DNA of 64,000 nt. It comes from Escherichia coli. Lineage in GTDB: Bacteria; Pseudomonadota; Gammaproteobacteria; Enterobacterales; Enterobacteriaceae. Location: the NCBI RefSeq assembly GCF_003334405.1, contig NZ_QOWM01000004.1; one strand, written 5' to 3'. The position numbers and the translations under genes are program-made. Shown here piece by piece: positions 15,986-31,191 of this stretch. Every line of letters starts with the position of its first letter. Position 1 is the stretch's first letter. A model generated the notes under the pieces. It had not been told where the DNA came from. It saw only the letters and a list, made by a program, of their open reading frames with translations, and did not search any database.

Positions 15986-16073
15986 GTTCACTGCCGTACA
16001 GGCAGCTTAGAAATTCACAGGTAACATACTCCACCCGCCCACCATGTTCACTGCCGTACAGACAGATAAAATG
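15986..16073 (+). CRISPR. Orphan type I-F CRISPR remnant: two 28-bp repeats (second degenerate) flanking one 32-bp spacer; no cas genes in the window
   Basis: Repeat 1 at 15986-16013 is GTTCACTGCCGTACAGGCAGCTTAGAAA, the type I-F repeat as I recall it; spacer 16014-16045 is ttcacaggtaacatactccacccgcccaccat; repeat 2 at 16046-16073 is gttcactgccgtacagacagataaaatg; location between clpA and serW fits the known CRISPR3/4 site. Confidence 0.8.
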
Positions 16074-16116: not shown

Positions 16117-16204
16117 TGGCGGTGAGGGGGGGATTCGAACCCCCGATACGTTGCCGTATACACACTTTCCAGGCGTGCTCCTTCAGCCACTCGGACACCT
16201 CACC
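16117..16204 (-). tRNA. serW: tRNA-Ser (anticodon GGA), 88 nt with long variable arm
   Basis: Reverse complement reads GGTGAGGTGTCCGAGTGGCTGAAGGAGCACGCCTGGAAAGTG...GGTTCGAATCCCCCCCTCACCGCCA; encoded CCA end; T-loop GGTTCGAAT. Confidence 0.95.
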
Positions 16205-22827: not shown

Positions 22828-23322
22828 ATGGTAGATAGCAAGAAGCGCCCTGGCAAAGATCTCGACCGTATCGATCGTAACATTCTTAATGAGTTGCAAA
22901 AGGATGGGCGTATTTCTAACGTCGAGCTTTCTAAACGTGTGGGACTTTCCCCAACGCCGTGCCTTGAGCGTGTGCGTCGGCTGGAAAGACAAGGGTTTAT
23001 TCAGGGCTATACGGCGCTGCTTAACCCCCATTATCTGGATGCATCACTTCTGGTATTCGTTGAGATTACTCTGAATCGTGGCGCACCGGATGTGTTTGAA
23101 CAATTCAATACCGCTGTACAAAAACTTGAAGAAATTCAGGAGTGTCATTTAGTATCCGGTGATTTCGACTACCTGTTGAAAACACGCGTGCCGGATATGT
23201 CAGCCTACCGTAAGTTGCTGGGGGAAACCCTGCTGCGTCTGCCTGGCGTCAATGACACACGGACATACGTTGTTATGGAAGAAGTCAAGCAGAGTAATCG
23301 TCTGGTTATTAAGACGCGCTAA
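22828..23322 (+). CDS. lrp: Leucine-responsive regulatory protein (global regulator)
   Basis: ORF 22774..23322 trimmed to ATG at 22828 (MVDSKKRPGKDLDRIDRNILNELQKDGRISNVELSKRVGLSPTPC); HTH plus RAM domain; long upstream leader. Confidence 0.95.
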   Translation: MVDSKKRPGKDLDRIDRNILNELQKDGRISNVELSKRVGLSPTPCLERVRRLERQGFIQGYTALLNPHYLDASLLVFVEITLNRGAPDVFEQFNTAVQKLEEIQECHLVSGDFDYLLKTRVPDMSAYRKLLGETLLRLPGVNDTRTYVVMEEVKQSNRLVIKTR

Positions 23323-23456
23323 CACGGAACAGGTGCAAAATCGGCGTATTTTGATTACACTCCTGTTAATCCATACAGCAACAGTACTGGGGTAACCTGG
23401 TACTGTTGTCCGTTTTAGCATCGGGCAGGAAAAGCCTGTAACCTGGAGAGCCTTTC

Positions 23457-26400
23457 TTGAGCCAGGAATACACTGAAGACAAAGAAGTCACATTGACAAA
23501 GTTAAGTAGCGGCCGCCGCCTTCTGGAGGCGTTGCTGATCCTTATTGTCCTGTTTGCCGTCTGGTTGATGGCTGCCTTACTAAGCTTTAACCCTTCGGAC
23601 CCCAGCTGGTCGCAAACGGCCTGGCATGAACCTATCCATAATTTAGGTGGGATGCCCGGTGCGTGGTTGGCAGATACGCTGTTCTTTATTTTTGGCGTGA
23701 TGGCTTACACCATTCCCGTCATTATTGTCGGCGGTTGTTGGTTTGCCTGGCGTCATCAGTCCAGCGACGAATACATTGATTATTTTGCCGTTTCGCTACG
23801 CATCATTGGCGTTTTGGCGCTCATCCTTACCTCCTGTGGTCTGGCGGCAATCAACGCTGACGATATCTGGTATTTTGCCTCCGGTGGCGTCATTGGCAGC
23901 TTACTAAGCACTACGCTACAACCACTGCTACACAGTAGCGGGGGAACTATTGCGCTGCTCTGCGTTTGGGCAGCGGGCCTGACGTTGTTCACCGGTTGGT
24001 CATGGGTGACCATTGCTGAAAAACTCGGCGGCTGGATTTTAAACATTCTCACCTTCGCCAGTAATCGTACCCGTCGCGATGATACCTGGGTCGATGAAGA
24101 TGAGTATGAAGACGACGAAGAGTATGAAGATGAAAATCACGGCAAACAGCATGAATCACGCCGTGCCCGTATTCTTCGCGGCGCGCTAGCGCGTCGTAAA
24201 CGGTTGGCGGAAAAATTCATTAATCCGATGGGGCGGCAAACAGACGCTGCGTTGTTCTCCGGTAAGCGGATGGATGATGACGAAGAGATTACCTACACTG
24301 CACGCGGTGTGGCTGCCGACCCGGACGACGTCCTATTTTCGGGCAATCGTGCAACGCAGCCAGAATATGACGAATACGATCCATTATTAAACGGTGCGCC
24401 AATTACCGAACCTGTCGCTGTAGCAGCTGCTGCTACCACGGCGACACAAAGCTGGGCTGCGCCGGTTGAACCTGTGACTCAGACGCCGCCTGTTGCCTCT
24501 GTTGATGTTCCACCTGCGCAACCTACAGTAGCCTGGCAGCCTGTACCGGGTCCACAAACGGGAGAGCCGGTTATTGCTCCTGCACCGGAAGGTTACCCAC
24601 AGCAGTCACAATATGCGCAGCCTGCAGTGCAATATAATGAGCCGCTGCAACAACCAGTACAGCCGCAGCAGCCGTATTATGCACCTGCAGCTGAACAACC
24701 TGCGCAACAGCCGTATTATGCCCCTGCGCCAGAACAACCGGTGGCAGGTAACGCCTGGCAAGCCGAAGAGCAGCAATCCACTTTTGCTCCACAGTCTACA
24801 TACCAGACTGAGCAAACTTATCAGCAGCCAGCCGCTCAGGAGCCGTTGTACCAACAGCCGCAACCCGTTGAACAGCAGCCTGTTGTGGAGCCTGAACCCG
24901 TTGTAGAAGAGACAAAACCCGCGCGTCCGCCGCTTTACTACTTTGAAGAAGTTGAAGAGAAGCGAGCCCGTGAACGTGAACAACTTGCGGCCTGGTATCA
25001 ACCGATTCCAGAACCGGTTAAAGAACCAGAACCGATCAAATCTTCGCTGAAAGCACCTTCTGTTGCAGCAGTACCTCCAGTAGAAGCCGCTGCCGCTGTT
25101 TCCCCGCTGGCATCTGGCGTGAAAAAAGCGACACTGGCGACGGGGGCTGCCGCAACCGTTGCCGCGCCAGTCTTCAGTCTGGCAAATAGCGGTGGACCGC
25201 GTCCTCAGGTCAAAGAGGGGATTGGTCCGCAGTTGCCACGACCGAAACGTATCCGCGTGCCAACTCGTCGTGAACTGGCGTCTTACGGTATTAAGCTGCC
25301 CTCACAGCGTGCGGCGGAAGAAAAAGCCCGTGAAGCCCAGCGCAATCAGTACGATTCTGGCGATCAGTACAACGATGATGAAATCGATGCGATGCAGCAG
25401 GATGAACTGGCACGTCAGTTCGCCCAGACACAGCAGCAACGCTATGGCGAACAGTATCAACATGATGTGCCCGTAAACGCAGAAGATGCAGATGCTGCGG
25501 CAGAGGCTGAACTGGCTCGTCAGTTTGCGCAAACTCAACAACAACGTTATTCCGGCGAACAACCGGCTGGGGCGAATCCGTTCTCGCTGGATGATTTTGA
25601 ATTTTCGCCAATGAAAGCGTTGCTGGATGATGGTCCACACGAACCGTTGTTTACGCCAATTGTTGAACCTGTACAGCAGCCGCAACAACCGGTTGCACCG
25701 CAGCAGCAATATCAGCAGCCGCAACAACCAGTTCCGCCGCAGCCGCAGTATCAGCAGCCACAACAGCCGGTTGCGCCGCAGCCACAATATCAGCAGCCGC
25801 AACAACCGGTTGCGCCACAGCAGCAATATCAGCAGCCGCAACAACCGGTTGCGCCGCAGCAGCAGTATCAGCAGCCACAACAGCCAGTTGCGCCACAACC
25901 GCAGGATACCCTGCTTCATCCGCTGTTGATGCGTAATGGCGACAGCCGTCCGTTGCATAAACCGACGACGCCGCTGCCTTCTCTGGATTTGCTGACACCG
26001 CCGCCGAGCGAAGTGGAGCCGGTAGATACCTTTGCGCTTGAACAAATGGCTCGCCTGGTGGAAGCGCGTCTGGCTGATTTCCGTATTAAAGCCGATGTCG
26101 TCAATTACTCTCCGGGGCCGGTTATCACTCGCTTTGAATTGAACCTGGCACCGGGCGTAAAAGCGGCGCGCATTTCTAACTTGTCACGGGACCTTGCCCG
26201 TTCACTTTCGACGGTGGCGGTGCGTGTCGTTGAAGTTATTCCTGGCAAACCCTATGTAGGTCTGGAGTTACCGAATAAAAAACGACAAACCGTTTATCTG
26301 CGCGAAGTTTTGGATAACGCCAAATTCCGCGATAATCCGTCGCCATTAACCGTGGTGCTGGGTAAAGATATCGCCGGTGAGCCGGTGGTTGCCGATCTGG

Positions 26401-27446
26401 CGAAAATGCCGCACTTGTTGGTTGCGGGGACTACCGGTTCCGGTAAATCTGTCGGTGTGAACGCGATGATCCTGAGCATGCTTTATAAAGCACAGCCAGA
26501 AGATGTGCGTTTCATCATGATCGACCCGAAAATGCTGGAGCTTTCGGTTTATGAAGGCATTCCGCATCTGTTAACGGAAGTCGTTACTGATATGAAAGAT
26601 GCCGCCAACGCGCTGCGCTGGTGTGTTAACGAGATGGAGCGTCGGTATAAACTGATGTCTGCGCTGGGTGTGCGTAATCTGGCGGGTTATAACGAAAAAA
26701 TTGCTGAAGCCGATCGCATGATGCGTCCGATTCCAGACCCGTACTGGAAGCCGGGTGACAGTATGGATGCCCAGCATCCGGTGCTGAAAAAAGAACCATA
26801 CATTGTGGTGTTGGTTGACGAATTTGCCGACCTGATGATGACGGTAGGTAAAAAAGTGGAAGAGCTGATAGCACGTCTGGCGCAAAAAGCCCGTGCCGCG
26901 GGTATCCACCTCGTACTGGCAACTCAGCGTCCATCGGTTGATGTTATTACTGGTCTGATTAAAGCGAATATTCCGACCCGTATCGCCTTTACCGTATCCA
27001 GTAAGATTGACTCACGTACCATTCTTGATCAGGCTGGCGCGGAATCACTGCTGGGTATGGGGGATATGCTCTACTCTGGGCCGAACTCCACGTTGCCGGT
27101 ACGTGTCCATGGTGCTTTTGTTCGCGATCAGGAAGTTCATGCCGTGGTGCAGGACTGGAAAGCGCGTGGTCGCCCACAGTATGTTGATGGCATCACCTCC
27201 GACAGCGAAAGCGAAGGTGGTGCGGGTGGTTTCGATGGCGCTGAAGAACTGGATCCGTTGTTCGATCAGGCGGTGCAGTTTGTCACTGAAAAACGCAAAG
27301 CGTCAATTTCTGGCGTACAGCGTCAGTTCCGCATTGGTTATAACCGTGCAGCGCGTATTATCGAACAGATGGAAGCGCAGGGGATTGTCAGCGAACAGGG
27401 GCACAACGGTAATCGTGAAGTGCTGGCCCCACCGCCGTTTGACTAA
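23457..27446 (+). CDS. ftsK: DNA translocase FtsK (N-terminal membrane domain, Pro/Gln-rich linker, C-terminal RecA-like motor and gamma domain)
   Basis: 1329-aa ORF; the only in-frame start giving the recognised MSQEY... N-terminus is TTG at 23457-23459; Walker A GTTGSGKS; long PQ-rich linker. Confidence 0.9.
25674..25907 (+). repeat. About six tandem copies of a 39-bp (13-aa [13 protein letters not shown]) in-frame repeat inside the ftsK linker
   Basis: Translation reads [13 protein letters not shown] / [13 protein letters not shown] / [13 protein letters not shown] / ... in direct succession; the DNA units are near-identical. Confidence 0.85.
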
Positions 27447-30953: not shown

Positions 30954-30973
30954 TACCCAATTTTTCTGAATCT

Positions 30974-30999
30974 AAAAAGCGCCTGCGGGCGCTTTTTTT
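30974..30999 (+). terminator. Rho-independent terminator downstream of serS
   Basis: agcgcc-tgcg-ggcgct hairpin followed by T7. Confidence 0.75.
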
Positions 31000-31191
31000 G
31001 TCTCCCTTTGATACCGAACAATAATTACTCCTCACTTACACGTAATACTACTTTCGAGTGAAAATCTACCTATCTCTTTGATTTTCAAATTATTCGATGT
31101 ATACAAGCCTATATAGCGAACTGCTATAGAAATAATTACACAATACGGTTTGTTACTGGAATCAATCGTGAGCAAGCTTGAGTGAGCCATT

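Follow-up and report, generated by a model that had tools for sequence, protein, structure and literature searches.

The TTG start codon of Escherichia coli ftsK and its conservation among Enterobacteriaceae

The ftsK gene of Escherichia coli raises two linked questions: where its translation begins, and what the nature of the start codon means for the amount of protein made. In the window analysed here (the whole stretch of 64,000 nucleotides of E. coli DNA) the initial annotation had ftsK start at a TTG codon, and remarked that such starts are uncommon and usually signify low or regulated initiation. The rarity agrees with published figures, which put UUG at about 3-4% of E. coli starts and initiation from canonical non-AUG starts at 10-100% of the AUG level (bioRxiv 10.1101/063800). 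The elements of the reading frame are the following.

23439..23441 (+): in-frame TAA stop, six codons 5′ of the ftsK TTG (translation of 23331-23660)
23457..23459 (+): ftsK initiation codon TTG, read as fMet (sequence, ORF list, homology, published Ribo-RET)
23457..27446 (+): ftsK coding sequence, 1329 codons plus stop (ORF list, FtsK identity, profile matches)
23568..23570 (+): earliest ATG in frame (codon 38), not accepted as the main ftsK start (domain, periodicity, orthologue residues)

Reading frame, protein identity and published initiation data

The sequence around the proposed start reads ...CTG TAA CCT GGA GAG CCT TTC TTG AGC CAG GAA TAC ACT.... None of the five codons between the TAA and the TTG (CCT GGA GAG CCT TTC) is ATG, GTG, TTG or a near-cognate codon (0/5), which together with the stop at 23439-23441 leaves no in-frame start upstream; the absence of an upstream in-frame ATG, claimed at the outset, thus follows from translation of the frame. 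Downstream of 23457 the in-frame start-type codons are TTG at codon 13 (23493), TTG at codon 26 (23532) and ATG at codon 38 (23568). The ORF list gives 23457..27446 (+) with 1329 aa, in agreement with the length originally assigned from this TTG.

The resulting protein carries the recognised FtsK N-terminus, as had been stated: FtsK of K-12 MG1655 has the same length and is identical at 1328 of 1329 positions, the sole difference being at residue 6 (I6T). In the curated MG1655 record (b0890, NP_415410.1, NC_000913.3 933224..937213) ftsK starts at the same TTG base, and PGAP annotation of an O157:H7 genome uses that base too. MG1655 shares with the window an identical intergenic region, Shine-Dalgarno sequence and TTG (one difference in the first 258 aligned bases) and the lrp-ftsK-lolA neighbourhood; over the first 100 coding bases the single mismatch falls in codon 6. 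RefSeq annotation of identical DNA gives the order trxB, lrp, ftsK, lolA. Every one of the 5426 complete E. coli genomes has the 500-nt segment around the start at no less than 95% identity, with lrp and ftsK as its annotation. Eight of 5431 matches to the lrp-ftsK junction (23257-23756) lie on plasmid-labelled records of complete E. coli assemblies; these are possibly mis-assigned replicons or duplications. Codon 6 (23472-23474, +) is ACT (Thr) in the window and ATT (Ile) in K-12 MG1655. Since Thr occupies this position in all 80 Enterobacteriaceae sequences compared, Ile6 of K-12 is the derived allele.

Profile matches cover the protein from its first residue. The NCBIfam equivalog NF007615 (PRK10263) scores 3049.3 bits against a cutoff of 1566, with residues 1-1329 matching profile positions 1-1355 of 1355 and profile position 1 aligned at residue 1. 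Pfam FtsK_4TM (PF13491) matches residues 20-191 (model 2-171 of 171, E = 2.4e-43), so this domain is intact only with a start no later than about residue 19. The PDB holds no solved structure of the FtsK N-terminal domain (residues 1-210).

Retapamulin initiation profiling, which the initial annotation had proposed as a check, is available in published form and supports the TTG. In the Ribo-RET data of Meydan 2019, as re-scored by Hör et al., ftsK (b0890) has an in vivo peak of 94.5 CPM for the translation initiation site (TIS) at 933224 (+) and is scored TRUE (PMC9825163 Table S2), a TIS being accepted there when a peak of at least 5 CPM falls 12-18 nt after the annotated start. Within ±3 nt of this TIS, TTG is the only start-type codon, and the table of non-annotated TISs contains no ftsK entry (PMC9825163 Table S3). 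By contrast, in vitro INRI-seq gave no peak at the ftsK TIS in any of five replicates (0/0/0/0/0, scored FALSE; PMC9825163 Table S2), with the ftsK transcript present at 117 CPM (PMC9825163 Table S4), and ftsK belongs to a set of 104 genes that were verified in vivo yet missed in vitro (PMC9825163). The coding part of the INRI-seq transcript runs from codon 1 to about codon 51, which takes in codons 13, 26 and 38 (PMC9825163). We observe that this synthetic transcript (window 23427-23600) has a 5′ UTR of only 30 nt (PMC9825163).

Other published sources were searched as well. A 2024 cdsA paper counts ftsK among the essential genes that have TTG as their initiation codon (PMC11448367). The literature searched contained neither N-terminal peptides nor Edman data for FtsK, no ftsK rows occur in the supplements of TRAINSPOTTER (PMC13245402) or of tetracycline TIS profiling (PMC4909307), and the text of the Meydan preprint does not mention ftsK.

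Initiation at TTG 23457-23459, as first annotated, is thus supported by the sequence, the ORF list, annotation, Ribo-RET and conservation. Four of the lines of evidence are independent of one another: annotation and profile, Ribo-RET, the comparative data given below, and the extent of the 4TM domain. We assign the ftsK translation start to 23457 with high confidence. The assignment is correct but ordinary, as it is already known from reference annotation, the literature and in vivo initiation profiling.

Several features elsewhere in the window were recorded alongside. The ftsK linker contains a 39-nt tandem repeat in 5.7 copies (25674-25894, +) that encodes a 13-residue repeat. FtsK of the O157:H7 genome is annotated with 1342 aa against 1329 in the window, and 13 residues is the length of one repeat unit, which suggests, from the sequences compared, copy-number polymorphism of the linker repeat. 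At 15986-16013 (+) there is one orphan CRISPR repeat (Rfam CRISPR-DR4, 50 bits), beside a tRNA gene at 16120-16204 (-). We take it to be the clpA-infA remnant of a CRISPR locus that is known from E. coli strains without type I-F cas genes. Downstream of the ftsK-lolA-rarA-serS block there is a full-length match to the enterobacterial sRNA family STnc130 (30967-31101, -; 140 bits against a gathering score of 55).

Comparison of orthologues and alternative starts

With FtsK residues 1-210 as the query, a scan limited to a single genome of each species gave 80 Enterobacteriaceae loci, 79 of them usable. The scan included Escherichia, Citrobacter, Klebsiella, Raoultella, Enterobacter, Lelliottia, Leclercia, Kosakonia, Phytobacter, Pluralibacter, Siccibacter, Trabulsiella, Kluyvera and others. 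Together with the window, the 79 loci make up 80 distinct sequences with 77-100% nucleotide identity over codons 1-210. More distant orthologues (45-72% identity) were taken from representatives of 50%-identity clusters; lrp lies upstream of ftsK in these loci, the lrp-ftsK-lolA order recurs by Pfam content, and most have a LexA box.

The comparison bears directly on the possibility of a real or substantial second start downstream, at ATG codon 38 or at TTG codon 13 or 26. ATG38 is invariant in the 80 Enterobacteriaceae sequences, which is compatible with a minor internal product; one database representative protein (P0016) begins at the residue aligned to M38; and the lack of an in vitro INRI-seq peak at the annotated TTG points the same way. 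Against this, the 28 codons from 10 to 37 vary at 17 first, 7 second and 27 third codon positions (80 sequences), a pattern of purifying selection with coding periodicity that marks a translated region, and the N-terminal MSQEYTEDK is kept in orthologues down to about 48-60% identity. TTG stands at codon 13 in only 24 of the 80 sequences and at codon 26 in 40, residue 38 is Ile or Val in the distant orthologues P0021, P0022 and P0028, and no purine-rich Shine-Dalgarno sequence precedes ATG38. A start at codon 26 or 38 would moreover cut off the beginning of FtsK_4TM, and the Ribo-RET peak lies at the annotated TIS with no alternative ftsK site in Table S3 (PMC9825163). We therefore consider a downstream start very improbable.

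Still less credible is a start 5′ of 23457, be it from a non-canonical codon or through an extended frame of the kind that some gene callers annotate in orthologues: two database proteins are extended N-terminally (P0013 starts MSGAVSFIVYRHLEILLSQEY, P0022 starts MLVLGQEY) and the Citrobacter frame has no stop for 30 codons upstream and contains a TTG at -17 and a GTG at -19, but the window itself excludes this reading by its TAA six codons upstream followed by five codons that are not near-cognate, and upstream stop position and frame vary among genera. The in-frame stop lies 6 codons upstream in the window and 7, 9, 14, 22 or 30 in other genera, and indels of 1, 15 and 26 nt occur in this part of the alignment, which makes the region 5′ of the TTG non-coding. 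The ATG of P0013 falls in the loop-to-3′-arm part of a conserved hairpin and the GTG of P0022 inside the Shine-Dalgarno sequence, and both have TTG at the homologous site; judged from the alignment, the two extensions are gene-caller artefacts. The spurious extensions were located at 401-460 in locus L086 and at 401-412 in locus L090. A TTG start thus leads to inconsistent FtsK N-termini in databases, either as spurious extensions or as truncations, some of which begin at M38.

Conservation of the TTG and of its surroundings

The following features surround the start codon.

23363..23378 (no strand assigned): LexA box CTGT-N8-ACAG of the SOS-inducible dinH promoter driving ftsK (sequence CTGTTAATCCATACAG, literature, alignment)
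23378..23409 (+): conserved stem-loop, 3′ of the LexA box and 5′ of the ftsK ribosome-binding site, then UCCGUUUUAGC (structure prediction, covariation)
23445..23448 (+): Shine-Dalgarno core GGAG, in conserved CTGGAGAGCC (23443-23452), with an 8-nt spacer to the TTG (sequence, alignment)
23460..23486 (+): ftsK codons 2-10, translation-initiation region, in which codons 2, 3, 4, 7 and 9 are nucleotide-invariant (80-sequence comparison)

The homologous start codon is TTG in 79 of the 79 usable loci, and in 80 of 80 with the window, and is preceded by CTGGAG(A/T)GC. All 59 fourfold-degenerate sites that belong to conserved codon families in ftsK codons 1-210 vary over the same 80 sequences, which sets an upper 95% bound of about 5% on the invariant fourfold fraction. 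Chance invariance of the first base of the start codon is therefore unlikely if it drifts as these sites do. ATG or GTG in its place would stay functional, yet neither occurs, which argues for selection on TTG itself. Among 5427 E. coli records, 5402 have an identical sequence from -40 to +15 of ftsK, and none of the 5427 matches an exact ATG or GTG version of this segment. TTG also stands at the homologous position in nine of the ten distant orthologues; the tenth is Vibrio-like, with a different N-terminus and an ATG start. As a general trend, a UUG start changes to AUG or GUG more frequently than an identical triplet in non-coding DNA does (PMC5622118), and against this trend the persistence of TTG in ftsK argues for selection.

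Constraint extends into the first codons of the gene. Among 128 degenerate codons with an invariant amino acid in codons 2-210, only five are invariant at the nucleotide level, and all five are codons 2, 3, 4, 7 and 9. They read AGC CAG GAA .. GAA .. AAA, with synonymous sites elsewhere saturated among the 80 species. On this comparison, the weak start codon and the adjacent synonymous sites are under nucleotide-level purifying selection. The strict and deep conservation of the TTG, taken with the apparent nucleotide-level constraint on neighbouring codons, is a modest new addition to what was known of this start.

The GGAG core and its 8-nt spacer have the arrangement of a Shine-Dalgarno-led UUG start, in which the start codon lies 5-10 nt 3′ of a purine-rich motif. 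CTGGAG is invariant in a 72-sequence alignment and is also kept in the distant orthologues L083-L090; its distance from the TTG is conserved as well. A stem enclosing the start codon, formed by CCUGG (23442-46) and CCAGG (23462-66), was predicted and rejected as unsupported: the 60-nt region has a z-score of +0.43 against shuffled sequences, and both arms are invariant. This z-score also means that the stem does not explain the invariant early codons. A scan of 23300-23560 against Rfam returned no family, its sole match being sub-threshold and meaningless.

Further upstream, the LexA box is nearly invariant and is present in all aligned species. The ftsK LexA motif is given in the literature as ACTCCTGTTAATCCATACAGCAACA (PMC3009722), the same motif as in the window, and the dinH promoter has been described as essential for ftsK transcription (PMC4080785). 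Its -35 and -10 elements would be TTGATT (23351-56) and TACAGC (23374-79), respectively; a scan with a promoter consensus made no call on the + strand 5′ of ftsK. The stem-loop at 23378-23409 is predicted with 14 bp in E. coli. Its consensus over 42 distinct sequences has 12 pairs, five of them with compensatory double changes and almost none broken, and it has no match to an Rfam family. As modelled, it could be the lrp terminator, the 5′ stem of the ftsK mRNA, or both. The dinH transcription start deduced from these elements would fall within its 5′ arm. A second small hairpin, GCAGG-AAAAG-CCUGU (23425-23439, +), lies directly 5′ of the Shine-Dalgarno sequence. Escherichia, Citrobacter, Klebsiella and Enterobacter carry this hairpin, which was lost by a 15-nt deletion in Kosakonia, Pluralibacter and others and by a 26-nt deletion in Phytobacter; deletions in several genera indicate that it is dispensable.

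Possible significance of a weak start codon

The view of the initial annotation that TTG means low or regulated initiation of ftsK is plausible, in that it would fit the conservation described above. The sequence of events that we propose runs as follows. Most of the ftsK mRNA would be made from the dinH promoter, which is controlled by LexA and lies about 80-100 nt upstream. The 4-nt GGAG, 8 nt upstream of the start codon, would position the 30S subunit at UUG 23457, and initiator fMet-tRNA would read this codon to begin MSQEYTEDK. The initiator Met is probably removed later, given that residue 2 is Ser and given the specificity of methionine aminopeptidase. The weak UUG, the short Shine-Dalgarno sequence and the invariant early codons may be kept by selection as a fixed throttle, which would hold down the synthesis of FtsK, a large, low-abundance membrane DNA translocase. 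With translation throttled in this manner, regulation would be left mainly to transcription (SOS). We lean towards this explanation, in which the weak codon was selected to keep FtsK synthesis low, and judge it somewhat better than an even bet.

The nearest model for such a throttle is cyaA, which like ftsK has a UUG start and a low-abundance product. Replacing the UUG of cyaA with GUG or AUG increases expression, according to the title of Reddy et al. 1985 (PNAS), as cited in PMC11448367. That effect was measured in cyaA itself; a literature search found no start-codon swap or expression measurement for ftsK. The essential, TTG-annotated E. coli genes cdsA, fabZ and yihA resemble ftsK in that their expression should stay low (PMC11448367). 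Unlike ftsK, cdsA has multiple back-up initiation codons (PMC11448367), whereas codons 13 and 26 of ftsK are not conserved as starts and Table S3 lists no alternative TIS for the gene (PMC9825163).

Another parallel is offered by infC and pcnB, whose AUU starts are, like the TTG of ftsK, non-AUG codons conserved to limit or regulate initiation. The AUU of infC is the sensor of IF3 autoregulation. To our knowledge, no IF3-linked regulation of ftsK has been described. The AUU starts of infC and pcnB, both named as confirmed non-canonical starts (10.1101/063800), are also far weaker (1-2% of AUG), whereas the UUG of ftsK is a canonical start.

The main competitor to a throttle accepts TTG as the true start and treats its weakness as non-adaptive: the initiation region would be constrained for some other purpose, such as a protein or sRNA site or the needs of the mRNA, rather than for limiting FtsK. 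The strength of the start codon does not by itself account for the invariance of the synonymous sites of codons 2, 3, 4, 7 and 9, and the ftsK initiation signals differ between in vivo and in vitro measurements; both points speak for such a constraint. It is weakened by the fact that no Rfam family or known element covers the initiation region, and predicted local structure is no more stable than that of shuffled controls (z = +0.43). In addition, the orthologues L091 (AT-rich) and L093 have lost the CCTGG/CCAGG context but kept the TTG. We know of no translational regulator specific to ftsK, which likewise counts against it. We rate this explanation as possible but unlikely, at perhaps the level of one chance among several.

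A bolder proposal is that the UUG, the short Shine-Dalgarno sequence and the invariant codons 2-9 form a conserved control element for ftsK translation across Enterobacterales, dependent on a factor or on mRNA context. Candidate factors or contexts that are absent from the purified in vitro system could include the IF3 level, a structured 5′ UTR, an sRNA or a protein. If such an element existed, FtsK synthesis would be tuned after transcription, and the codon would be more than a passive weak start. We regard this as a speculative idea, clearly less probable than a constraint of another kind.

The preferred reading remains a weak start selected to limit synthesis. For annotation, the ftsK start in the window is right, and current understanding of FtsK is unchanged. 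FtsK, which acts in the divisome and as a DNA pump, is essential and occurs in low copy number, and the conservation of a weak start across a bacterial order suggests that its over-production is selected against. Work that recodes, tags or over-expresses ftsK should therefore take the native TTG into account.
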